From the NCBI GenBank assembly GCA_964350985.1, contig CAYGLK010000001.1, forward strand, positions 91,018-155,017: DNA of 64,000 nt, given 5' to 3'. The notes under the pieces are model-generated. The model saw only the letters and a program-made list of their open reading frames with translations. It was not told the DNA's origin and ran no database searches. The position numbers were made by a program, and so were the translations under genes. The DNA is from an uncultured Candidatus Saccharibacteria bacterium. Lineage in GTDB: Bacteria > Patescibacteriota > Minisyncoccia > Phycocordibacterales > UBA918. Each line of letters opens with the position of its first letter. The stretch's first letter is position 1. Shown here piece by piece: positions 2,919 to 40,805 of the stretch.

Positions 2919-3821
2919 ATGGCAAATAGGCACCTTTCGCGCAGTATAGTTCTTCAAGCACTCTTTGAGTGGGATTTAAATGCAATTGATAAAAAGGAAG
3001 TTATAAATATTTTAGATAGAAATATCGAAGAGTTTGCTCAAAACAAGACGGACCGACCTTTTATGGAGAAGCTCTTAAATGGGATTCTTGGAAAGCAAAC
3101 AGAACTAGATTTAGTAATTACTAAAGCTGCACCTGAGTGGCCTATTGATCGTATCTCTCCAGTTGATCGAAATATTTTAAGACTAGGATTGTTTGAACTC
3201 CTTTTCTCTGAGCGTTCTGAAGTGCCAGCTAAAGTGGCGATAAATGAAGCGATTGAATTAGCTAAGCAATTTGGGGGTGATAACAGTAGTCGTTTTGTAA
3301 ACGGTGTACTCGGCGCTGTCTATAAAGAGATCGGTGAGCCAGGAAAAGCTGAGACAAGCAAGCAGCGTAAAAAAGACGTTCCGTTTGATCAGATGCCAAT
3401 TGAAAGACTTGCCGGTGCTGTGGTCTATGCTGAATCAGGTGGGCAGATGTACTTTGCTTTGGTCCACGATATCTTTGGTCACTGGACTCTGTCTAAGAGT
3501 AAGGTAGCTGAAAACGAGACTGTTGAACAAGGAGCTGTACGAGCTCTTAAGGAAGAGATTGGTTTGCCAGTAGAGATTGAAGCTGAATTAGGTAATAATG
3601 AATATATCGCCACTCAGCCAGAAAAAGGAAAGGTACGAAAGCAAGTACACTATTTCTTAGCTAAAGCCCCGTATCAAGACATTGCTTTGGCAAAGAAAGG
3701 CGGCTTAGATGACGCTCGATGGTTTAGAGTTTCTGATATTTTGAACCTTAATTTCTATGAGGATATTCTACCGATTGTAACCAAGGCTATTACCATGTTG
3801 GTTGGCAGAAGCGGCAAATAG
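2919..3821 (+). CDS. nusB: transcription antitermination factor NusB fused to a C-terminal Nudix hydrolase domain
   Basis: N-terminal ~148 aa (MANRHLSRSIVLQALFEWDL ... FVNGVLGAVYKE) is a complete NusB. The C-terminal ~140 aa carries a Nudix box, ETVEQGAVRALKEEIGL. Start is at an internal Met of the ORF. Confidence 0.75.
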   Translation: MANRHLSRSIVLQALFEWDLNAIDKKEVINILDRNIEEFAQNKTDRPFMEKLLNGILGKQTELDLVITKAAPEWPIDRISPVDRNILRLGLFELLFSERSEVPAKVAINEAIELAKQFGGDNSSRFVNGVLGAVYKEIGEPGKAETSKQRKKDVPFDQMPIERLAGAVVYAESGGQMYFALVHDIFGHWTLSKSKVAENETVEQGAVRALKEEIGLPVEIEAELGNNEYIATQPEKGKVRKQVHYFLAKAPYQDIALAKKGGLDDARWFRVSDILNLNFYEDILPIVTKAITMLVGRSGK

Positions 3822-5994: not shown

Positions 5995-8259
5995 ATGTAT
6001 CTCAAAGACTTAACAATTTCTGGATTTAAATCTTTCGCTAAGAAAGGGGAGTTAGAGTTCTCGGCTCCGATCACGGCTATTGTGGGTCCTAATGGTTCTG
6101 GAAAAAGTAATGTAGCTGAGTCTTTCAGGTTTGTGCTTGGTGAGCAGTCAGTTAAGTCGATGCGTGGTAAACGGGGAGAGGATTTAATTTGGGGCGGGTC
6201 TACACAAGTCTCTAGAGGTAATCGCGCCCATGTTACTGTCACGCTCGACAATAGTAAAAGAGTTTTTCCGCTCGATTTCTCTGAGATTAAGATTGAAAGA
6301 GTAGTAAACCGCGATGGGCAAAACGAATATATTTTAAATGGGTCGGTGGTGCGACTAAAAGACATCCAAGAACTATTAGCTTCAGCTAATATTGGATCAA
6401 CCGGACATCATATTATTTCGCAAGGTGAAGCTGATCGTATTTTGACAGCCAATCCAAAAGAAAGACGAGAGATGATTGAGGATGCTCTTGGTCTCAAGAT
6501 CTATCAATACAAACGACAAGAAGCAGAAAAGAAATTAACTAAGACTGTTGAGAACGTAGCTCAAGTAGAGTCTCTTAGACGTGAGTCAGCCCCGCACTTA
6601 AAGTATCTTGAAAAACAGGTACAGAAGATCGAGAAATCATTAGAACTGCAAGAAAAATTAAAGGGAGTTTATGCAGAGTATTTGAGACGTGAAGATATTT
6701 ATATTAGTAGTCATCATGACAGGCTAGAAGGAGAACTAAGAGAACCAAGAGAGGTATTAAAGAAAACAATTGATGACCTTAGTGAAGCTAAGAAAAAACT
6801 ACAAGAATCAGAATCAGGTAATGATTCAAAGGAGCTTATTCATGCTGAAGAAGAACTTCAAAAAGCGACCCATAGTCGACAGTCAGTCGAACGGGAATAT
6901 AGTAAGTGTGAAGGACAGATTGCTTTGCTAGAACGACGCTTGTCTGATTATGAAAAGCGAAGCAAAACTGAGACTGGTAAAGCGATTGCCTACGAAGATA
7001 TTTCTAGTTTGATCAAAGATATTGAACAGCAAGTTAGTAAAGCAGTACAAAAAGAAGAGGTTTCTTTTTTACAAAGAGCACTAACTGATATTGTCCATAA
7101 ACTAAAAGTCTTTATTGAGCGCTCAACAGTTGTGACTGATACTGGAGTAGAGTTTGATAAGGAAGAATTAGGAAGACTACAAAAAGAGATTGAGCAATTA
7201 AGCAAACAACTAGAAAAAGCCAAGCAAGACGAAGTAGGTGCTCGAAAAGGCTATGACGAGATGGAACAAAAGCGTCTACAAGAAGCCACAGATGGTCGTG
7301 AAGCCGAGCGGGCGGTGTTTAGGCTAGTAAGTGAGCAACGTGAGCTAGAAACTAAAATTGAACGCCTGGAGCGCGAGCTAGCGATACTTGATCGTGACCG
7401 TAATGAGTTCAAACAAGAGCTACAAGAAGCTGTAGCTTTGCTTGGTAGAGCAGCAGCTCAATACTATGACCAAGTAGTAAAGGATGAATCTGGAAAAGAA
7501 TTAACTGAGACAGATATTGTGAACGAGAGTCGTGATATTCAAAGAACTCGACGTCATGAATTGGAAAAATTAAAGATCCGTTTGGAAGAGCTTGGTATTG
7601 GTGCAACGGAAGATATTATAAAAGAATACAATGACGCTAAAGACCGTGACGCATTCTTAGCTCGAGAGATTACTGATCTGGAAAGCTCAATTGAGAAACT
7701 ACGTGAATTGATCGAAGAACTACAAGGAAAACTTGAAGAGCAATTTGTTGAAGGAATCAAAAAAATCTCAAGTGAATTTAATCGCTTCTTCACTTTGATG
7801 TTTGGTGGTGGAGAGGCAGAGTTGGTGACTGTGACTACTAAGTCTCGCGCAGTGACAGAAGATGATCTGATGGAAGAAGGGGATGATGAAGAAAAGAAAA
7901 AAGAAGATGGTATTGAACTAGTGGCTAAGTTGCCAAACAAGCGCGTTAAGGGACTAGAGATGCTTTCTGGAGGAGAGAGAGCTCTGACTTCGATTGCACT
8001 TATTTTTGCAATGTCACAAGTAAACCCTCCGCCATTTATTATCTTGGACGAGACTGATGCTGCTTTGGACGAAGCTAACAGCCGTCGCTATGGAGACATG
8101 ATTGAAGAATTGGCTAAGAAGTCTCAATTAATTTTAATTACTCACAATCGGGAGACTATGAGTCGCGCAGGTATTCTATACGGGGTAACAATGGGGAGTG
8201 ACGGAATTTCTAAATTACTTTCAGTAAAGTTTGATGAGGCGGTGGCGGTGGCTAAATAA
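5995..8259 (+). CDS. smc: chromosome segregation protein SMC, short (754 aa) hinge-less form
   Basis: Canonical SMC N-terminus MYLKDLTISGFKSFA...IVGPNGSGKSN and QGEADRILTANPKERREMIEDALGL. C-terminal signature LSGGERALTSIAL plus Walker B FIILDETDAALD. The middle ~450 aa is continuous predicted coiled coil with no Gly-rich hinge. Position after rnc matches the rnc-smc order seen in Firmicutes. Confidence 0.8.
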   Translation: MYLKDLTISGFKSFAKKGELEFSAPITAIVGPNGSGKSNVAESFRFVLGEQSVKSMRGKRGEDLIWGGSTQVSRGNRAHVTVTLDNSKRVFPLDFSEIKIERVVNRDGQNEYILNGSVVRLKDIQELLASANIGSTGHHIISQGEADRILTANPKERREMIEDALGLKIYQYKRQEAEKKLTKTVENVAQVESLRRESAPHLKYLEKQVQKIEKSLELQEKLKGVYAEYLRREDIYISSHHDRLEGELREPREVLKKTIDDLSEAKKKLQESESGNDSKELIHAEEELQKATHSRQSVEREYSKCEGQIALLERRLSDYEKRSKTETGKAIAYEDISSLIKDIEQQVSKAVQKEEVSFLQRALTDIVHKLKVFIERSTVVTDTGVEFDKEELGRLQKEIEQLSKQLEKAKQDEVGARKGYDEMEQKRLQEATDGREAERAVFRLVSEQRELETKIERLERELAILDRDRNEFKQELQEAVALLGRAAAQYYDQVVKDESGKELTETDIVNESRDIQRTRRHELEKLKIRLEELGIGATEDIIKEYNDAKDRDAFLAREITDLESSIEKLRELIEELQGKLEEQFVEGIKKISSEFNRFFTLMFGGGEAELVTVTTKSRAVTEDDLMEEGDDEEKKKEDGIELVAKLPNKRVKGLEMLSGGERALTSIALIFAMSQVNPPPFIILDETDAALDEANSRRYGDMIEELAKKSQLILITHNRETMSRAGILYGVTMGSDGISKLLSVKFDEAVAVAK

Positions 8260-8261
8260 TT

Positions 8262-8420
8262 ATGAGTAATAATCAAACACAAACCGTTGAGCAGATTATG
8301 GAGGACACTCAACACCTCCTTCATTTACTTGCTGAAGAGCAGTTAGTAATTAGAGAAATGGTTGAAACAAGATATCGTGAACTACATGATAAAGACATTT
8401 CAGAACCTTCTGACAATTAA
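8262..8420 (+). CDS. small hypothetical protein (52 aa)
   Basis: ATG-initiated ORF MSNNQTQTVEQIMEDTQHLLHLLAEEQLVIREMVETRYRELHDKDISEPSDN filling the smc-downstream gap. Too short for the ORF track; speculative. Confidence 0.25.
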   Translation: MSNNQTQTVEQIMEDTQHLLHLLAEEQLVIREMVETRYRELHDKDISEPSDN

Positions 8421-8426
8421 AATGTT

Positions 8427-9701
8427 ATGGATTTTGAAAAATTAGGTACAAAAAAAGATGATAGATTTGATAAACCTGAAGCAGAACAGGAGACAGAAAC
8501 ATTTTTGTTTGAAATAGAACAAGATCTCCAAAATTTATCTACTAATAGTGCTGAGATTAGTAGTCTTCTTGAAAAATTACCATCAGATGATGATGGGGTT
8601 ATAGAGATAAAAGAAAGTTTAATTAACATACAGCATCGTATTAGCAGCGTCTTACAGCGGGCCATGTTATTACTTTCTCTTTCAGCTGCTTCTAGTTCGG
8701 CTTATGCGCAAGAAGGGTCATCAGCTGCTCCAGAAAATTCCCGTCCACATGTTGAGCTTGAGTATGACAACCCACAAAGATTGGCGTCAAAGAAGGTTAG
8801 AACATACAAATCTTTTATTGATAAGGAGATAAAAAAATACGAAGAATTAGCAATACCGTTCAAATCTAGGGATGGGGATTATATTGATAACTTAGAAATT
8901 GCACTTGATTCAGAACAAGAACTTAGTGAAGAACAGACAAGTATTGTACAAAGCGCAAGGGCAGCCTGGTATGTTGAACTATTACGTATTGAACGCAAAA
9001 GTATCAGAAAACATGCTAGACAAACACAGCAAGCTTATGAGGAAGCTGATACTGCACGCCAATGGCTTGCCGACCTCATACATTCAGAAGAGTATGAAAA
9101 GCGAGCTCTTGCTGAAGGTTTAAGCGAAGAAGAAATACAAGAAAGGCGTAAACGCAGTAAGCAAGATAGCACCCAATTCTTTGAGAGCTTAGCCAGCGGA
9201 GATAGTTATGGAAAGTATATTTTAAAAGGTAGTTTAGTACACCCTGAAGCATTGCGTGATCAGATTAAACTTTCTCGACAAAAGTTTTTTAATGGATTCG
9301 GTAGGGTAAATAAAATATCAGAAATTCAGGTTCATGAAATGGAACACCGCGTTACTCGTGCTAATGAAGGACTTAGTCAGCGAGCGAAAGACTTATACAC
9401 AGAAGCATTTATTACTAGACCTTATCATGATAAAGAATATGCAAACTATCTCGCGACACTTACTGAATTAGACGCTCGAAAAAAATCTTTTGAGTATCAA
9501 TTTGAAAAATTAACAAATTGGCGTTGTGGTATGCCATTTACTTCGGAACACAAAGAGCAAGCAATAAGACTGTACTATGAAGGAAAGTTCAGTAGTGATG
9601 TCGGAGAGTTTTTTAATGTTATTAAACTTGATTATTTTGAACGAATAATGAATGAACTAGCCGATATAAGTGAGTTGGATGAGAGTGAAAATATTGTTTA
9701 G
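8427..9701 (+). CDS. hypothetical protein; possibly a secreted protein starting at internal Met (8664)
   Basis: 424-aa ORF. Acidic coiled N-terminal 79 aa is followed by an internal signal-peptide-like segment, MLLLSLSAASSSAYAQE. No recognisable domain. Confidence 0.5.
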   Translation: MDFEKLGTKKDDRFDKPEAEQETETFLFEIEQDLQNLSTNSAEISSLLEKLPSDDDGVIEIKESLINIQHRISSVLQRAMLLLSLSAASSSAYAQEGSSAAPENSRPHVELEYDNPQRLASKKVRTYKSFIDKEIKKYEELAIPFKSRDGDYIDNLEIALDSEQELSEEQTSIVQSARAAWYVELLRIERKSIRKHARQTQQAYEEADTARQWLADLIHSEEYEKRALAEGLSEEEIQERRKRSKQDSTQFFESLASGDSYGKYILKGSLVHPEALRDQIKLSRQKFFNGFGRVNKISEIQVHEMEHRVTRANEGLSQRAKDLYTEAFITRPYHDKEYANYLATLTELDARKKSFEYQFEKLTNWRCGMPFTSEHKEQAIRLYYEGKFSSDVGEFFNVIKLDYFERIMNELADISELDESENIV

Positions 9702-9705
9702 CTAA

Positions 9706-9775
9706 TTTTGTTCCAGTGATTTTCTCAAAGAGGGAAAATCACTGGAACAAAATACCGATTTGCAGAAAATCGGTA
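9706..9775 (+). terminator. tandem hairpins (19-bp perfect inverted repeat plus a second hairpin and U-run)
   Basis: TTTTGTTCCAGTGATTTTC-TCAAAGAGG-GAAAATCACTGGAACAAAA, then TACCGATTTGCAGAAAATCGGTA, then TTTCT. Member of the GTTCC...GGAAC hairpin family. Confidence 0.55.
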
Positions 9776-9796
9776 TTTCTGCTATTCTTTAAATAT

Positions 9797-10066
9797 ATGA
9801 ACACAATTAAACTACAGAATCGTGGCACTTTAACTTTACCTAAAAAAATTCGTGAAGTTTTAGGTTTAGCTGATGGCTCAATCCTGCAAGTGTCTTCTGA
9901 CAAAAATAGAATTATTTTGGAAAAAATTACGACAGTTTCCTCAGATGATTCAGAACTACTGGGAGATATTAAACAGTCTTTGGCTGATATTAAGAAAGGT
10001 GATTTTATTGAGTTTAGCTCAATAAATGAATTTAAAAAGAAAGCTAAAGCTTATGGTGAAAATTAG
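9797..10066 (+). CDS. AbrB/MazE-family (SpoVT-AbrB swapped-hairpin) antitoxin
   Basis: MNTIKLQNRGTLTLPKKIREVLGLADGSILQVSSDKNRIILEKI matches the SpoVT_AbrB domain. Stop overlaps the toxin start by 14 nt. The ORF-track start at 9716 is a read-through of the upstream hairpin. Confidence 0.7.
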   Translation: MNTIKLQNRGTLTLPKKIREVLGLADGSILQVSSDKNRIILEKITTVSSDDSELLGDIKQSLADIKKGDFIEFSSINEFKKKAKAYGEN

Positions 10067-10301
10067 GATATCTAAGACAGCTTTAAAACAATATCAAAAT
10101 CTTTCTCCTGAACTAAAGAAAAAAACTGATAAGCAATTTGCCTATCTTTTGTCAGACCATAAACATCCTTCACTGAAAGCAAAAAAGTATCGTACAGAAG
10201 ATGATCTCTGGCAGGCGCGTATTGATCGTAATTGGCGTTTTTATTTCTTCGTTGTGTCACCAAACTATTTGATTGTTTCTATCATAGCTCATCCAAAGTA
10301 A
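10053..10301 (+). CDS. RelE/ParE-superfamily toxin
   Basis: MVKIRISKTALKQYQNL...DLWQARIDRNWRFYFFVVSPNYLIVSIIAHPK matches the RelE/ParE C-terminal pattern (R-x-RiiY ... ghR/HPK). Translationally coupled to the upstream antitoxin. Confidence 0.7.
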   Translation: MVKIRISKTALKQYQNLSPELKKKTDKQFAYLLSDHKHPSLKAKKYRTEDDLWQARIDRNWRFYFFVVSPNYLIVSIIAHPK

Positions 10302-10348
10302 AATGAACAAATGCCAATAGGGCATATTGTGAATTTTGTTCCGAGTTT

Positions 10349-10389
10349 GGCCCTTTCCTAGGCCAAACTCCTGGAACCGGAACTCCAAT
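10349..10389 (+). repeat. hairpin of the GTTCC...GGAAC family downstream of the TA module
   Basis: GTTCCGAGTTTGGCC-ctttccta-GGCCAAACTCctGGAAC, preceded by the same AATTTTGTTCC lead-in as the hairpin at 9706. Confidence 0.5.
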
Positions 10390-10654
10390 GCTAAGTCAGA
10401 ACAATATTTATTTAGGTAAAGTTGCTATTCTGATACTAAAGTGTAAAATCGTTTTTAACTGTCTCCATACCTGTAGAGGTAGGCGGGTGCCAACGTCCGC
10501 TATAACGCTTCAAACAGTTCCCATGTCTGGAAAGATCGAGCGGCACTTTTCAGAATGTTGGTTTGGTTTCAGCCAGGTATCAGAGCTGGCTTGTCCGCTC
10601 CCGAACCGAAGGCGTCAGATGCTTGTACCCTTGTATCTGCCGCCTTTTTTAATA

Positions 10655-10690
10655 TAAAAAAACCGCATGCCTAGGCATGCGGTTTTTGTT
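10655..10690. terminator. bidirectional terminator between the TA region and rnr
   Basis: AAAAACCGCATGCCTAGGCATGCGGTTTTTGTTTT. Confidence 0.65.
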
Positions 10691-10705
10691 TTTCTGCTTG
10701 TTTTA

Positions 10706-12649
10706 TTATTTCGTGATCAACTCAAAATCCAATTGCCTTGCTTCTTTGTCAGCATTGATCAGCTTCACAGTCACAGGATCACCAAGTTGGTAAATCTTGC
10801 CTGTCTTTTGGCCTTTGATTCGATACTTACTAGCTTCGTGTTCGAAGTAATCACTCTTGATTGAAGCTAGACGTACCATACCGTCAGCTAAACAAGTAGA
10901 CTCTTGAACGTAAAGACCCCAGTCAGTTACTCCAGTAATTACACCAGTGAAAGTTTCTCCAACTTTGTTCATTAAGTATTCTACTTGCTTGAACTTAATT
11001 GAGTCTCGTTCAGCTGTCACAGCTTCCATTTCACGTTGTGAAGACTTCACTGCCATTTGTTCATACTTAGCTACTTCTTTAGGTCCAATGAATTCTCCGT
11101 CTAAGTGCTTCCTGAGCATTCGGTGAGCCATCAAGTCTGGGTAGCGACGAATAGGGGAAGTGAAGTGAGTGTAGAACTTGAAGGCTAGTCCAAAGTGACC
11201 AATGTTCTTAGTTGAGTAGACGGCTTTAGCCATAGTTCGGATACTGGCGGTCTTAATGAGGTCAGCCTCAGGTTTGCCTTCAACTTGCTTTAGGAGGTTA
11301 TTGATAGCTGTTGCTTTAACAATACCTTTATGAGTTTCAAACTCGTAACCAATCGCCTTTAGGAAAGTCGCTAGTTCTTCTACTTTGTCTGGATTAGGGA
11401 CATCGTGAATTCTGTAAATAAAAGCCAAATCTTTATTCTTGTCTTTCGACATATCATAAATGTAGGTAGCAACCTCACGGTTAGCCAAAAGCATAAAGTC
11501 TTCGATCATGAGCATCGTCTCAACTCTTTCTTTTTTGTAGGCTCGGATTGGTGCTCCTCGCTCATCGAGTTCAAACTTTACTTCCGCTGATTCAAAAGCA
11601 ATCGCTCCTGAGGCAAAGCGCTTCTTTCGAAGTTTGCGTCCAAGTGTCATCAGGGTATTTAAATCTTCGAGGTGAGGACCTGACTGCTTGTCTAATACTT
11701 CTTGAGCTTCTTCATAACTGAAACGTTTGTCTGAGTGAATGACAGTTTGTCCATACCAAGCGTTAGCGATATCAGAGTCTGGAGTCAGTTCAAAAATAGC
11801 TGAGAAAGCTAAACGATCTTCGTTTGGCCGAAGTGAACATAAGTCGTTACTAAGGATTTCTGGAAGCATCGGAATTACTCGGTCTACTAAGTAAACAGAA
11901 GTAGCTCTGTCTTTTGCTTCGATATCAATGCCATCATTGTCTCGTACATAATGAGATACGTCAGCAATATGGATTCCAATCTCAAAGTTACCAGAAGGCA
12001 ATTTTCGACAAGACAAAGCATCGTCAAAGTCTTTTGCGTCCGCTGGGTCGATAGTCATTGTCATTACGTCGCGCATGTCACGACGTTTAGGGTCTTTTAG
12101 AGCGTCCGCAAAAATCTGTTCTTTGGTATTAAATAATTCTTGAGCGGCTTTTTGAACTGACTCTGGAAAGTCTTTTGAGAAACCACCGCTACGAATAATA
12201 GCTTGCATTTCAGTTTCGTGATCACCAGCGTGCCCGAGAGTTTCAGTGATCTTGGCAGTTGGATCAAGTAGTGGTTGAGTCCAAGAAGTGACTTCAACTA
12301 CCACTTTCATCCCTAGGTCATTTTTAGAAGCTGTGGGAACTAGAGGTCTGATATGGATTCTTCCGTTGTCTGGAAGGAAAAAGAGAACTGGCTTACCATC
12401 GACTTTCTTTTCTTTAATAATACCGATTAATTCACGGTAGGCAGCCTTCACTACACGAACCACTTCACCTTCCTGGCGTTTACCAGGAACTTTATTCTTT
12501 AGTTTAAGCTCTACAATGTCACCATCGAGCGCGAAGCCTAAGGCTTCGCGCTCGATCACAATATCTTCTTCTAGGTCAGGATGATTAACAAAACCTGTCC
12601 CTTTCCCTCGAACCATAATGATTCCTTCGTATGTATTAGCGTTATTCAT
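10706..12649 (-). CDS. rnr: ribonuclease R / RNase II-family 3'-5' exoribonuclease
   Basis: RNB-domain motif TIDPADAKDFDDALS. N-terminal cold-shock-like region and C-terminal S1 region (KGQKTGKIYQLGDPVTVKLINADKEARQLDFELI). Confidence 0.85.
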   Translation of the reverse strand: MNNANTYEGIIMVRGKGTGFVNHPDLEEDIVIEREALGFALDGDIVELKLKNKVPGKRQEGEVVRVVKAAYRELIGIIKEKKVDGKPVLFFLPDNGRIHIRPLVPTASKNDLGMKVVVEVTSWTQPLLDPTAKITETLGHAGDHETEMQAIIRSGGFSKDFPESVQKAAQELFNTKEQIFADALKDPKRRDMRDVMTMTIDPADAKDFDDALSCRKLPSGNFEIGIHIADVSHYVRDNDGIDIEAKDRATSVYLVDRVIPMLPEILSNDLCSLRPNEDRLAFSAIFELTPDSDIANAWYGQTVIHSDKRFSYEEAQEVLDKQSGPHLEDLNTLMTLGRKLRKKRFASGAIAFESAEVKFELDERGAPIRAYKKERVETMLMIEDFMLLANREVATYIYDMSKDKNKDLAFIYRIHDVPNPDKVEELATFLKAIGYEFETHKGIVKATAINNLLKQVEGKPEADLIKTASIRTMAKAVYSTKNIGHFGLAFKFYTHFTSPIRRYPDLMAHRMLRKHLDGEFIGPKEVAKYEQMAVKSSQREMEAVTAERDSIKFKQVEYLMNKVGETFTGVITGVTDWGLYVQESTCLADGMVRLASIKSDYFEHEASKYRIKGQKTGKIYQLGDPVTVKLINADKEARQLDFELITK

Positions 12650-15241: not shown

Positions 15242-15586
15242 ATGAAAGCTAAATTGAAGCCAGGTCACGCCATTGAACAACTGAGAGCCAGGACTTCTCT
15301 TAGAGCTAAAACAGTAAGAAGGTGGCTTAAGGAAGATCGCTACATTGTGCTTCCCGGTACACGAAGATCTGTGGCAAATATTGGGATACTGATGTGGGAC
15401 TGTTTTGGACACCAACCAGTCATAATAGTTCTTTTGAAATCCATGGATACATATGTGGTTAAGACAGTCATGGTTCCAAGCAAAGGTAGGCGCTGGAACG
15501 GACGTCTGGTGGAAACTGATTGGAATATCAAACAAGTCAAACAACTTTGTACACTAGAATCAGCTGAAAAAACAAGGAAGAGTTGA
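15242..15586 (+). CDS. hypothetical Arg-rich small protein with HTH-like N-terminus (paralog 2)
   Basis: RBS GGGGGAG 5 nt before ATG. LRAKTVRRWLKE is a resolvase/transposase-type HTH-like segment. Paralogous to the preceding ORF. Confidence 0.5.
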   Translation: MKAKLKPGHAIEQLRARTSLRAKTVRRWLKEDRYIVLPGTRRSVANIGILMWDCFGHQPVIIVLLKSMDTYVVKTVMVPSKGRRWNGRLVETDWNIKQVKQLCTLESAEKTRKS

Positions 15587-15587
15587 A

Positions 15588-15640
15588 ACCCCTGAGTAAA
15601 GCAAACGCGTGCGTTTGCTTTACTCAGGGGTTTTTCTTGC
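15588..15640 (+). terminator. strong rho-independent terminator
   Basis: CCCCTGAGTAAAGCAAACGC-GTG-CGTTTGCTTTACTCAGGGG (20-bp stem) followed by TTTTT. Confidence 0.75.
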
Positions 15641-24929: not shown

Positions 24930-25397
24930 TTACTTGTCCTTATTTAAAAGAATGTTGTCTGCGATACTAAAAAGTAAAAAGTGCATTGGATAACGACTTT
25001 TCAAATCAGTGAAACTTAGTGGAGACACGCGATTTCTGGAACCGCTAGATTTTTTGGACTTAGGCTTCTTTTGTTTATCTTTGACATCTCTATATGAAGG
25101 TAACTCTTTACTGATCCATTGTCTGATATTGCGAAAAGTATTAGGACTGATCTGTAATATCTCATTAACTTCATAATAAGTTGCACCAGTTAGTATCAAA
25201 CGTGCAATTACTATTCGTCTTCCAACCGCAAGACGTTCTTTTTCAGTCAAGACTTGTTGAATAAAAGAATTTACTGCAGCCTCACCTTTAAATTGACCGG
25301 CAGCAGCGGAGAGTGCGTCATTTATTAATTTATCCTCCTTAATTTGTCTCAGATTCATAAATAAAAATTTAATTAGTAACTCTCTATCTATCATCAA
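24930..25397 (-). CDS. TrpR/YerC/YecD-family DNA-binding regulator with basic C-terminal extension
   Basis: LTEKERLAVGRRIVIARLILTGATYYEVNEILQISPNTFRNIRQWI fits the YerC/YecD TrpR-like HTH. Start is ambiguous: TTG 25397, ATG 25394 or Met at 25358. The start overlaps operator site b. Confidence 0.6.
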   Translation of the reverse strand: MMIDRELLIKFLFMNLRQIKEDKLINDALSAAAGQFKGEAAVNSFIQQVLTEKERLAVGRRIVIARLILTGATYYEVNEILQISPNTFRNIRQWISKELPSYRDVKDKQKKPKSKKSSGSRNRVSPLSFTDLKSRYPMHFLLFSIADNILLNKDK

Positions 25398-25492
25398 TGA
25401 TAGATAGAGACCACACTATAAATACTATCATCAGTGATAGATAAAGAGAATCACATTGGTTTAATTTATCTATCCTCAATGATAGATAAATT
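25382..25492. promoter_or_regulatory. three tandem palindromic operator sites (b, c, d) over the regulator promoter/start
   Basis: b 25382-25409 CTCTATCTATC-ATCAAT-GATAGATAGAG; c 25421-25446 imperfect aCTATC-ATCAGT-GATAGATAA; d 25463-25492 AATTTATCTATC-CTCAAT-GATAGATAAATT. Confidence 0.6.
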
Positions 25493-27762: not shown

Positions 27763-29136
27763 GTGGACACTATGGCTACCAAAAAGGCCACAACAAAAAA
27801 AGTTAAAAAAGCGGCCAAAACCGTTACAAAAAAAATCAAAAAGGCTCCGGCCTCAAAAACAAAAGCAAAGAAGGTTGTAAAGAAGGCAGCTACGAAGAAG
27901 ACAAAAAAAGTAGTTAAAAAAGCGGCTAAAGCCGCTGTTAAAAGTGTCAAAAAAGTAACTACAAAGAAACTAGTCTCAAAAGCAAAGAAGGTTGTAAAGA
28001 AGGTTGTAGCTCCAAAAGCTAAAAAACCAGCTAAACCAGTCAAGAAAGTGCCGCTAACCAAGAGTGAGAAGATTCTTGAAATGAAAGCAGCTGAGTTAAT
28101 GCGCTCTGGTCGTGACCGAGGTTATGTTACTTATGACGAACTACTGAGAGCTTTTCCAGAAATCGAAAAAGACATCGCTTTTCTTGATGTGCTCTATGAT
28201 CGGTTTTCAATCGCTGGGGTTGATGTGCTACAAAGCGGTGGAATGTTGGGTGAGGATACCAGTGCTGAGATTATTGCTCAGAAAAATGCTTTTAAGCGAA
28301 GCGATAGTAGTTACGACTCTATTCAAATGTATCTGCGAGAGATCGGACAATATCCACTTTTGAATGCTCAAGAAGAACGAACATTAGCAAAAAGAATTGT
28401 TGATGGAGATGATGAGGCTAGAAACTTACTGGCGCGGGCAAACCTACGTTTGGTAGTTTCAATTGCTAAGAAGTATGTTGGACGTTCTCCTGACCTAACT
28501 TTACTTGATCTTATTCAGGAAGGAAACCTTGGTTTGTTTAAGGCGGTAGATAAGTTTGACTTCACTAAAGGTTTTAAGTTTTCTACTTATGCTACTTGGT
28601 GGATCAGACAAGCGATTACTCGAGCATTAGCAGACCAGTCTAGAACTATTCGTATCCCGGTTCATATGGTTGAGACTATGGCTAAGTATAAGCAGGTCTC
28701 AAGGAGATTATCTCAAGACTTGGGTCGTGACCCGATGCCTGAGGAGATCGCTACTGAAATGGGTGTTGAAGTAGAGAAGGTTTACCAGATTGAAAAAATC
28801 AGTCAGGATACTATTTCACTTGAACTGCCAGTAGGTGACGACGACGACCGCTCAAGACTTTCAGACTTTATTTCTGACGATAAAATCGTATCTCCAGACC
28901 AAGAAGTGGCTCACAGTATTTTGACAGACCAAATTACTGAGATTCTAGATACTTTATCTGAAAAAGAAAGAAAGATTTTGGAAATGCGTCATGGATTACT
29001 AGATGGTACTTACCATACACTTGAAGAGGTAGGAAAAGAGTTTGGTGTCACTCGTGAACGTATTAGACAAATTGAAGCTAAAGCATTAGAGAAGATCAGA
29101 CAACACGAAAAAGCACGAAGACTTAAGTCTTACTAA
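27763..29136 (+). CDS. rpoD: RNA polymerase sigma-70 factor with histone H1-like Lys/Ala-rich N-terminal domain
   Basis: Regions 2-4: [73 protein letters not shown]. The first ~100 aa are KKA/KKV repeats. Confidence 0.9.
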
Positions 29137-29146
29137 ACTAAATAAA

Positions 29147-29183
29147 AACAGCGCGGCCTACGGCCGCGCTGTTTTTATTTGAG
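29147..29183. terminator. bidirectional terminator
   Basis: AAAAACAGCGCGGCCTACGGCCGCGCTGTTTTTATTT. Confidence 0.7.
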
Positions 29184-29186
29184 TTA

Positions 29187-30542
29187 CTAACTACTGTGAG
29201 GAATGACAATCTCTTCTAGTTCATTGTAGTGACTAGTTCCAGAGTGCTTATTGAACCATGGTTCAAAGGCTACTAGGGCAATAGTGGCAATAGTGAGGCC
29301 AACAACCATCGTCGGTACTCCAAGCTTCATCCAACTTATGAAGCTGATTGGGTTGTCAGTTTTCTCTGATTTAGCTACTACAATCACCCCAACAGTAGAA
29401 CCGATTGGCGAACCATTTCCTCCGAAACCAACTCCAAACACTAGCGCCCACCATAGCAGGTCAATTGGTACTCCTTGAGTCCCAAGGTAACCAATGATTG
29501 GAATCATAGCAACTGTGAATGGAATATTATCAATCATGGCTGACAAGACAGCACTAGTCCAAAGTAAGATAATAGCTGTTAGGAGTAGATTACTTTCAGC
29601 TCCAGAGATTAGGAGACCAGCCGCTTCTTTAAGTACACCAGAAAATTCTAGACCACCAACAATCACAAACAAAGATCCAAAGAAAAGTAGAACTGAGAGC
29701 TCACACTTCTCAATAATATGTTGCGGGTCATTATGAGGAGCAACTATGATTAGGGCCAAAGCGGCACCAATTAAAGCAACCATTGAAGCTTCTAAGTGGA
29801 TCAGTGAGTGCGTAAAGAACATGGCTACAACTAAAACCATAATCCAAAGTAATCGCTTCAAAGTCTTTGGATCCTTAATTGCATCTTTTTCGTTCATCAA
29901 CATTAGTTTGTCGATATTTTGCGGCTGGGCTTTTAGATCTTTTCGGAAAATAAGTCTAAATACACCCAAAGTTACAACCCAGGTTACTAAGACAACTGGT
30001 AGTGAGTGAAGTAAGAAATCATTAAAGGTTAGTCCAGCAAAAGAACCAATCATGATGTTTGGAGGGTCTCCAATTAGAGTTGCAGTACCACCAATGTTTG
30101 AGAGTAGGGCCTCAGCCATCAAGATTGGAATTGGGTTGATCTTGAGCATGTCAGCAATAATGATCGTAATTGGTACAATCAAAATGATAGTGGTTACGTT
30201 ATCAAGAATCATCGACAAGAAAGCTGTAATACCAGAAAGAGCTACCATCAAGAGCCAAGGATTACCCTTAGTCTTTTTAGCGGTCCAGATACCTAGATAC
30301 TGGAAAACACCAGTTTTCTCGAGCATCCCGACAATGATCATCATTCCAAAAAGAAGACCAAGGGTATTGAAGTCAACAGACTCAAGGGCTTTTTCAGGAC
30401 TGTAAAAGTCAAAATAAATACCAGCGACAACCATTGTTAAAGCTCCAAAAAGAGCAATAACTGTCCGGTGAATCTTTTCAGTTAAAATGAAGAAGAAAGT
30501 GACCCCAAAAATAAGCAGCGAAATAATTTCAATTGTTTCCAT
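29187..30542 (-). CDS. ArsB/NhaD-superfamily anion permease (citrate-transporter-like)
   Basis: 451 aa, ~12 TM segments, internal duplicated halves. LIGDPPNIMIG-type motif. Confidence 0.7.
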   Translation of the reverse strand: METIEIISLLIFGVTFFFILTEKIHRTVIALFGALTMVVAGIYFDFYSPEKALESVDFNTLGLLFGMMIIVGMLEKTGVFQYLGIWTAKKTKGNPWLLMVALSGITAFLSMILDNVTTIILIVPITIIIADMLKINPIPILMAEALLSNIGGTATLIGDPPNIMIGSFAGLTFNDFLLHSLPVVLVTWVVTLGVFRLIFRKDLKAQPQNIDKLMLMNEKDAIKDPKTLKRLLWIMVLVVAMFFTHSLIHLEASMVALIGAALALIIVAPHNDPQHIIEKCELSVLLFFGSLFVIVGGLEFSGVLKEAAGLLISGAESNLLLTAIILLWTSAVLSAMIDNIPFTVAMIPIIGYLGTQGVPIDLLWWALVFGVGFGGNGSPIGSTVGVIVVAKSEKTDNPISFISWMKLGVPTMVVGLTIATIALVAFEPWFNKHSGTSHYNELEEIVIPHSS

Positions 30543-40625: not shown

Positions 40626-40691
40626 CTTTTTGGAGATGACTCGGCTATTTATTACGAGTTATGACCTTTTTCTTAGTTTTAGAACTCGAGT

Positions 40692-40805
40692 TCCAGCGAT
40701 TTTCTCAAGGAGAGAAAAAATCGGGAACAAAGTAAAAAGATCCACCCAACCTTAATTCGCAGTAAACTGACGAAGTAAGGTTGGGTGGAATCAGGGTGTT
40801 TTTTC
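40692..40805 (+). repeat. degenerate copy of the GTTCC...GGAAC hairpin plus an adjacent 13-bp-stem hairpin with T-run
   Basis: GTTCCAGCGATTTTCTCAAGGAGAGAAAAAATCGGGAAC is homologous to 9710-9748. Then CCACCCAACCTTA...TAAGGTTGGGTGG followed by GGGTGTTTTTT. Confidence 0.5.

Follow-up and report, generated by a model that had tools for sequence, protein, structure and literature searches.

Hairpins beside a toxin–antitoxin pair are the local footprint of a widespread structured repeat in Paceibacteria-type Patescibacteria

The closest described counterparts of the element reported here are the repetitive extragenic palindromic sequences, bacterial interspersed mosaic elements (REP/BIME) and REPINs of Enterobacteria and Pseudomonas, and the enterobacterial repetitive intergenic consensus sequences or intergenic repeat units (ERIC/IRU) of enterobacteria and Vibrio. 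REPs stabilise upstream mRNA, and ERIC/IRU sequences have been proposed to act on mRNA fate. The present element occurs in a 64,000-nucleotide stretch of the genome of an uncultured Candidatus Saccharibacteria bacterium (assembly GCA_964350985.1, contig CAYGLK010000001.1, positions 91,018 to 155,017; hereafter the window), where it is represented by three hairpins, c1, c2 and c3. The first two lie on either side of a toxin–antitoxin (TA) gene pair and the third lies elsewhere, between fba and rpmG. An earlier note on this DNA had proposed that the two flanking hairpins bound a discrete TA cassette in the manner of recombination sites or of miniature inverted-repeat transposable elements (MITEs). 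Instead, we show that all three belong to one family of structured intergenic repeats of Paceibacteria-type Patescibacteria (Candidate Phyla Radiation, CPR), a family that is apparently undescribed. An explanation that joins this repeat family to an insertion of genes beside a resident copy and to a role of the element at the RNA level is, taken as a whole, probably correct in our judgement.

Like REP/BIME and REPIN sequences, the element is extragenic, structured and multi-copy, sits just after genes in either orientation and is sometimes found in tandem; REPs, like the element, can persist at orthologous sites. With ERIC/IRU it shares the form of an imperfect palindromic unit of about 100 nt, found in transcribed intergenic regions in either orientation and conserved across related genera. 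Set against these likenesses, a REP measures 20-40 nt whereas the element measures about 95 nt and has two distinct hairpins, and it lacks a GTAG-type 5′ tetranucleotide. Also unlike a REP, its 5′ end coincides with a stop codon, its helices are copy-specific and covary, and no associated REP-associated tyrosine transposase (RAYT) was found. To ERIC it bears no sequence relationship: it is built of two helices, P1 and P2, plus a third, P3, rather than of one long palindrome, and it has a stop-codon register and a tandem G·A.

The family came to light in a blastn search with the window spacer that contains c2, which found the c2 region directly downstream of smc in distant relatives. A first model of eight sequences had 97.5% pairing with compensatory change in 8 of 15 pairs, and none of 500 shuffles was as good. 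As relatives we took 80 syntenic GTDB loci fetched via RNase R (L002-L081), in which a covariance model, R1, found 20 copies at E < 0.001. A degenerate pattern scan of JGI metagenomes added a set of at least 120 contigs with at least 172 further copies, which brings the family to about 190 copies among the matches listed from the 80 related genomes and these contigs. With the alignments extended upstream, the conserved unit proved to be not a single hairpin but a stretch of about 95 nt with the layout (U/A)UAAAUGA-NNNN-A-[P2]-UA-N'N'N'N'-GAAUUU(U/A)-[P3]. P1 is made of NNNN/N'N'N'N' together with AAAU/AUUU and is interrupted by a tandem G·A/A·G that is kept in 84-90 of 98 copies; its variable arms covary (GCAA/UUGC, AGAA/UUCU, UGAA/UUCA, GAUA/UAUC, GCCA/UGGC and others). 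P2 is a mini-hairpin of five pairs closed by a GNA triloop, in which G·A/A·G pairs swap with Watson-Crick pairs. P3 consists of GUUCC, a variable 10-bp stem, the loop (C)UUUCCUA, the returning stem, a CU bulge and GGAAC; the CCUA of the loop is present in 93-97 of 98 copies and the 3′ CU bulge in all 98.

Covariation over the full length of the element is strong. Compensatory change was seen in 24 of the 31 pairs of an alignment of 95 non-redundant copies, with 463 compensatory cells against a shuffled mean of 111; none of 500 shuffles reached the observed value. Sliding the pairing partner by one column as a control lowered pairing from 86% to 42-48%. RNAalifold independently returned the same P1, P2 and P3, with 21 of 26 pairs compensatory. 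Helix sequences thus differ between copies and covary, near-invariant sequence being found in the loops, in the bulge and in the tandem G·A, and because G·A/A·G pairs interchange with Watson-Crick pairs in P2 it is one defined strand that folds. Rfam at gathering score gave no match in the window, and Rfam 15 gave none on a canonical copy (L126 6990-7170) even at E ≤ 1; with the hairpin region and three relatives included, at gathering and E-value thresholds, only spurious miRNA-like matches to the perfect hairpin came back. Literature searches found no description of a comparable repeat, and the pattern was not found in the viral contigs of IMG/VR.

To score the window we used a full-length covariance model, R2, built solely from copies in other genomes and run with filters off. 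The significant sites in the 64 kb are c2 (92.3 bits, E 1.4e-15), c3 (43.6 bits, E 2.9e-6, minus strand) and c1 (37.1 bits, E 5e-5, minus strand; 27.6 bits on the plus strand) only, the next match standing at 20.5 bits and E 0.08. The R1 model gives c3 41.4 bits (E 1.5e-8, minus strand) and c1 28 bits on the plus and 24 bits on the minus strand. The three related hairpins that the earlier note had seen, one before the TA pair, one after it and one elsewhere, are therefore present with scores beyond chance. The lead-in that it saw at the first two is present as well: the 11-mer AATTTTGTTCC occurs exactly twice in the 64 kb, at 9704 and 10332, where it makes up the foot of c1 and of c2 on the 5′ side. 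A U-tract follows none of the three.

The copy after the toxin gene, c2, is an intact element of about 97 nt (10299-10395, plus strand) in which P1, P2 and P3 are complete. P1 pairs 10300-10310 with 10327-10337 and contains the tandem G·A, P2 is the mini-hairpin at 10312-10324, and P3 pairs 10338-10352 with 10361-10377 around the loop CUUUCCUA (10353-10360), with the CU bulge at 10371-10372. The hairpin itself, 10338-10377, reads GTTCC-G-AGTTTGGCC / GGCCAAACT-CCU-GGAAC and has its lead-in from 10332; it had been recognised as a related hairpin after the TA pair but placed about 11 nt too far to the right, at 10349-10389. The first UAA of c2 is the stop codon of the toxin gene. Up to P3 (AAGUAAAAUGAACAAAUGCC…) its spacing and sequence parallel those of copies linked to smc in other genomes (AAAUAAAAUGAGCAAAUGCC…), and its identity to the smc-linked copies of L040, L041 and L043 is 82-86% over about 90 nt. 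A 5.7-kb Logan contig from another sample (ERR3534985; L001 5714-5761) agrees with the window at every position from the pilin genes to the end of the toxin gene and stops inside c2, 18 nt past the AATTTTGTTCC lead-in, which suggests that the repeat breaks short-read (de Bruijn) assembly graphs.

The distant copy, c3, is decayed (40672-40754, minus strand) and lies in the spacer between the convergent genes fba (PF00274) and rpmG (a weak PF00471 match). Its P3, at 40690-40728, keeps the 3′ CU bulge of the family and its P1 and P2 are replaced or degenerate; a canonical terminator follows about 60 nt downstream on the same strand. The earlier description of a degenerate homolog in this spacer was sound, with 32 of 39 positions identical to c1 at 40690-40728 in place of 31 of 39 at 40692-40738.

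A lone P3-like hairpin, c1 (9705-9753, scoring best on the minus strand), has arms at 9705-9724 and 9734-9753 that are 20 nt long and 100% complementary around a 9-nt loop, with a predicted dG of -30.7 kcal/mol; that it is perfect had been noted, with a stem one pair too short (19 bp, 9706-9752). Compared with the family its stem has been perfected, in that an inserted AG pairs with the CU bulge and TTTT/AAAA lengthens the stem. A like AG insertion is found in L138:4347, and the nearest kin of c1 are the copies of a GAUUUU subtype (c3, L083:7867, L042 and L040:18266). We infer that c1 is a remnant that has retained P3 only and whose imperfect stem has since been perfected, which would be consistent with imperfect-palindrome correction in a copy no longer constrained.

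The genes between c1 and c2 encode an AbrB/MazE-type antitoxin of 89 aa (9797-10066, plus strand; PF04014 at 5.1e-8, TIGR01439 at 1.2e-8) and an 82-aa toxin of RelE/YoeB fold (10053-10301, plus strand), the two overlapping by 14 nt. For the toxin there was no Pfam, NCBIfam or PDB sequence match, and its profile against PDB sequences drew RelE alone at an E of about 0.5. Foldseek, run on an AlphaFold model with a pLDDT of 93.1, matched it to RelK (3oei, TM 0.85), YoeB (2a6r, TM 0.82) and RelE (4fxe, TM 0.78), and at the level of the modelled fold the assignment to the RelE/ParE superfamily, with the fold of the RelE/YoeB microbial RNases, holds. Both gene assignments of the earlier note were borne out in this way, the second at fold level. 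A MazE-type gene adjoins every one of 33 toxin homologs. The pair resembles type II RelBE/YefM-YoeB modules in its small overlapping genes, its upstream antitoxin with an AbrB/SpoVT domain, its toxin of RelE/YoeB fold and its promoter palindrome, and differs from them in a toxin too divergent for Pfam or NCBIfam and in an mRNA predicted to be leaderless.

That prediction comes from the predicted promoter and operator region (9750-9796, plus strand), in which a -35 box TTGCAG (9760-9765) is followed after a 17-nt spacer by a -10 box TATTCT (9783-9788) and after 8 nt by the ATG. The layout TTGCAG-17-TATNCT-7/8-ATG recurs at the homologous loci L202 (about 3720-3760), L206, L207 and L209, likewise with no Shine-Dalgarno sequence, and since just 7-8 nt separate the -10 box from the ATG the TA mRNA is predicted to be leaderless. 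An obvious Shine-Dalgarno sequence is also absent from several further window genes. A palindrome, AAATACCGATTT/AAATCGGTATTT (9750-9761 and 9767-9778), is centred on the -35 box, and a palindrome over or next to this box is found at four of the five TA loci (the window, L202, L206 and L207). This palindrome, hairpin B (9750-9778), would thus belong to the TA module and is likely its operator. The R2 alignment had drawn it in as P1 of a minus-strand c1, an alignment that we therefore consider fortuitous and rejected, as the position of the palindrome recurs in TA homologs free of the element.

The same comparison bears on a more economical account, mentioned in part in the earlier note, in which c1 is the antitoxin operator or a terminator of the preceding gene, p424, c2 is the TA terminator, and the likeness of the three hairpins is coincidental. 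The position of c1, 4 nt after the p424 stop codon and just upstream of the TA promoter, would suit this account, and long terminator hairpins are many in the window. Against it stand the model E-values of c1, c2 and c3 and the identity of c1 to c3, the lack of a U-tract after any of the three, and the presence of c2 homologs in many genomes without the TA pair. As to the operator, a comparison of five homologous TA promoters shows that the palindrome conserved in position is the one at 9750-9778 over the -35 box and not c1, which we accordingly rejected as operator. Coincidence is, on this evidence, very improbable, and the covariance model shows the hairpins to be copies of a dispersed repeat.

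None of the 80 syntenic loci carries the TA pair or a homolog of it, a presence and absence comparison that the earlier note had suggested, and the pair is therefore accessory. Homologous TA loci elsewhere lie between genes for a histidine kinase and an aminoacyl-tRNA synthetase (Pfam tRNA-synt_1b) or have other neighbours (L209), and eight of them were found to hold no copy of the repeat element. At L209 an unrelated hairpin, AGCAAGGGNNNCCCTTGCT, brackets the homologous pair in two direct copies (3048-3074 and 3614-3640); the placing of a TA pair between repeat hairpins is thus recurrent, there with a different repeat family.

Copies linked to smc were found in at least ten genomes, namely L009, L012, L019, L040, L041, L043, L047, L048, L059 and L060. 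In these relatives the repeat model starts exactly 24 nt past the smc stop codon, and c2 has the same register after the toxin stop. More widely, the R1 model starts 13-28 nt past a stop codon in 47 of the 111 listed copies that have an upstream ORF on the same strand, with peaks at 22-24 nt, where the stop is the UAA of the element, and at 18-19 nt, where it is the UGA of AAUGA; the proteins encoded upstream are mutually unrelated. For upstream genes on the opposite strand it is often the start codon that directly adjoins the element, the distances peaking at 25 nt. Both orientations are represented among the copies, whose neighbours are mainly housekeeping genes, among them smc, gyrA, the rplJ/rplL spacer, rpsS, nusB-NUDIX, rpsP and an ABC ATPase, which goes against the association with accessory genes that had been supposed for the hairpins. 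Copies on one contig, such as the six on L118, differ throughout their helices, each with its own compensatory changes, and at orthologous sites copies with site-specific P1 sequences are kept across genomes whose RNase R proteins are 60-80% identical.

Head-to-tail arrays of two or three copies with a period of about 85-110 nt were seen in L096 (10725-10942), L142 (3-263), L145 (3423-3586), L170 (5240-5453) and L040 (13744-13923), at gene ends that include those of gyrA, smc and others; later units of an array retain P3 and a partial P1/P2. Arrays of hairpin units with a tandem G·A, which is box C/D-like, are also a feature of the TIGR arrays of TIGR-Tas systems, which likewise occur in CPR bacteria and Parcubacteria. 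In those systems no clear covariation is apparent between spacers A and B, and units with two unpaired variable spacers between box C/D-like motifs stand beside a Nop-domain tas gene (PMC12045711). We rejected a TIGR or box C/D reading of the element since its variable segments pair with each other and leave no free spacers. Moreover, the 53 window ORFs scanned include no Nop-domain Tas protein, the gene upstream of the L096 and L145 arrays is a gyrA homolog, and most copies are solitary and dispersed.

The window itself (G+C 40%) is a core-genome stretch of Paceibacteria-type Patescibacteria. It carries genes for RNase HII, L32, NusB-NUDIX, RNase III, pilins, an SMC-like ATPase, RNase R, S16, KhpA, TrmD, RpoB/C, DnaG, RpoD, a class I aldolase, L33 and ATP synthase, and the closest GTDB match of its RNase R is in a Paceibacterota metagenome-assembled genome, at 90% protein identity. 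A scan for tRNA and tmRNA genes found none. The order TrmD–KhpA–S16–RNase R … SMC–pilin–pilin is kept across the 80 syntenic loci. Between the smc-like gene (5995-8259, plus strand; Pfam SMC_N at 2.9e-63, with synteny in all 80) and the convergent RNase R gene (10706-12649, minus strand) lies a spacer, 8260-10705 in the window, that varies from 69 bp to about 5 kb with unrelated contents across these genomes, and that is a hypervariable gene-insertion hotspot in the lineage. In the window it holds, before the TA pair, an orphan two-gene accessory module on the plus strand (8262-9701) consisting of p52 (8262-8420) and p424 (8427-9701). Neither has a homolog in the 80 syntenic relatives or a Pfam match, and p424 has just two distant homologs among 5.8 billion proteins. 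The p52–p424 pair was found together once more, in L212 (3-1393), a genome of higher G+C with other neighbours. An attempt to rebuild the insertion history from p424 homologs failed, p424 being a near-orphan whose sole informative relative, L212, has different neighbours.

Since the toxin stop codon holds the register that the smc stop holds in relatives, p52–p424 and the TA pair look to have been inserted before a resident element. In the simplest history, which we infer from register and likeness, c2 would be the resident element that follows smc in relatives, p52–p424 and the TA pair would have been inserted between it and the smc stop codon, the TA pair arriving with a leaderless promoter and a palindromic operator of its own, and c3 would be a copy in decay. 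The hairpins would then flank the TA pair because the repeats populate gene ends and not because they mobilise it.

The competing proposal, that the hairpins are attC-like or Xer/dif-like sites bounding a mobile TA cassette, as in integrons or pdif modules, has some points in its favour: an accessory TA pair is bracketed by related hairpins, the element abuts a stop codon as attC sites often do, and it has a conserved extrahelical 2-nt bulge. In common with an attC site, too, one strand folds with extrahelical bases and stands directly after the stop codon of an ORF. Yet the RYYYAAC/GTTRRRY cores (the R and L core sites) are absent, the feet being GTTCC(G/C)A and CTGGAAC, and sequence conservation is far above that of attC sites. 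The copies lie in both orientations among housekeeping neighbours and form no one-orientation array. The TA pair has its own promoter, and its homologs elsewhere lack the element. As the earlier note had itself remarked of integrases, neither an integrase or other recombinase nor a transposase was found among the 53 window ORFs scanned. The site of c2 is occupied, in the same register after smc, in relatives that have no such cassette and no TA pair. A discrete cassette with such boundaries is scarcely credible on these grounds. The MITE comparison fares no better: nothing at the 3′ end mirrors the 5′ end (T/A)TAAATGA as an inverted repeat, the element fades out without a sharp 3′ boundary, no target-site duplication is evident, and copies on the same contig lack the near-identity of a recent amplification.

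A broader proposal is that the element is a selfish DNA repeat of REP/REPIN or MITE type whose single-stranded hairpins are recognised by a Y1 (HUH) transposase or something similar, in which case the TA pair between the inverted c1 (minus) and c2 (plus) might have been taken up or moved as one composite unit. Copies at many loci, in both orientations and in tandem arrays agree with it, as do the very high stability of GNA triloops and tandem G·A in DNA, the perfected c1 stem, which suggests palindrome correction at the DNA level, the REP-like hairpins about the L209 pair, and the occurrence in related genomes of RAYT-like Y1_Tnp genes with short palindromes flanking them. However, the element flanks none of the RAYT-like genes that were found, and the window holds no such gene; the element lacks terminal inverted repeats and was not seen in the IMG/VR viral contigs. 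Copies of one contig that are far from identical and have their own compensatory changes argue against recent copy-and-paste spread, retention at orthologous sites at the RNase R divergence given above argues for selection acting in place, and there is a bias to the sense strand. We consider a selfish repeat of this kind unlikely.

The Y1 genes are an observation in their own right. A tblastn search over 2.2 Mb of loci found five RAYT-like genes and two IS200-like Y1 genes, flanked by other palindromes or by none. RAYT-like Y1_Tnp genes, of about 166-226 aa and with an HxH motif such as MPNHFHLL, lie on Patescibacteria contigs in L209 (4443-5228), L120, L168, L082 (two copies) and L021, and in five of these six the same short palindrome stands on both sides (e.g. 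CCAGCCAGGGAAGTCTGACTTCCCTGGCTGG), the exception being the second, truncated copy of L082. Their sequences suggest that REP/RAYT-type systems exist in CPR bacteria.

We return to the explanation that we prefer, a structured repeat kept at gene ends, and to the level at which it may act. To a role of the element as RNA, carried in the mRNA of its neighbouring genes, we give slightly under an even chance. The folding of one defined strand, seen in the way the tandem G·A pairs behave as pairs, points in this direction. Between co-directional genes with robust neighbours, sense copies outnumber antisense copies 36:10, or 18:7 when unique sites are counted. At the ends of convergent transcription units, 13 of 35 copies are followed by a canonical terminator within 130 nt, which argues that the element is a part of the 3′ untranslated region (UTR) and not the terminator; after P3 comes A/C-NNN-A-(C)UC, with none of the U run of an intrinsic terminator. 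The element would accordingly be an intercistronic or 3′-UTR structure with its start at the stop codon, not itself a terminator and probably a specific protein-binding, processing or 3′-end-protecting module, in the way that REP and ERIC sequences affect mRNA stability.

Several points weigh against parts of this explanation. Of the copies that lie between co-directional genes, about a quarter run antisense to the genes on either side and are equally well conserved, which makes a purely mRNA-level role awkward. The excess of G·U over A·C is weak, about 37 versus 20 without the stop-codon column, a column that supplies 20 of the 57 G·U pairs. Stable GNA triloops and tandem sheared G·A pairs form in single-stranded DNA too, and the element may have its role as a DNA-level hairpin. 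As for the locus, the closest relatives (L002-L006 and L008) have no smc-linked copy and L007 has a weak trace, so that the distribution is patchy; the evidence for insertion upstream of a resident element consists of register and sequence similarity; and c1 was assigned on moderate scores, with the TA operator palindrome contributing part of the minus-strand one.

A more specific form of the RNA interpretation, which we put forward as a tentative possibility, is that the element is a new class of functional structured RNA, a two-domain unit of about 95 nt specific to Paceibacteria-type CPR bacteria. P1, starting at the stop codon, would be unwound by the terminating ribosome, and the invariant CCUA loop, the CU bulge and the tandem G·A could form the docking site of a dedicated protein or nuclease. 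Such an element might punctuate polycistronic transcripts by processing, 3′-end protection or translation-coupled control in genomes whose spacers are very short and in which many genes are leaderless or Shine-Dalgarno-less; tRNA punctuation in mitochondria would be a loose analogue.

Other structured sequences in the window stand apart from the family. Between c2 and RNase R lies a candidate small RNA (10456-10652, plus strand) with a promoter-like site at 10422-10449, a fold z-score of -2.49 and a structured body of about 200 nt that ends in a hairpin and a T-run; it gave no Rfam match and has in common with the same spacer of L003, L004 and L005 the motif GGGTGCCAACGTCCG. A canonical bidirectional intrinsic terminator (10658-10687) precedes the convergent RNase R gene. 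At gene ends, at 15586-15633 and 29130-29190, very long inverted repeats, perfect or nearly so, have arms of 23 and 29 nt and A/T-rich flanks; they resemble strong bidirectional terminators and have no relation to the family (R2 below 20 bits). Between two minus-strand genes, at 25380-25492, interlocking inverted repeats on CTATCATCAATGATAG / GATAGATAAA form a cluster whose sequence looks like a multi-site operator; one of these genes (24930-25397) has a weak Trp_repressor match.

To our knowledge the non-coding and repetitive elements of CPR genomes have hardly been explored. In the window, the three hairpins are the local footprint of a widespread structured CPR repeat beside an ordinary but accessory TA module. 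In practical terms, such a repeat fragments assemblies and can pass for the boundaries of a cassette. Strong covariation, invariant single-stranded motifs, a fixed stop-codon register and retention at orthologous housekeeping sites across deep divergence are a set of traits not found together in REP, ERIC, MITE or attC elements. Should it act as single-stranded DNA, the element would represent a domesticated repeat of a new kind, and if it acts as RNA it would point to an unknown protein–RNA system that shapes transcripts in these ultra-small bacteria.

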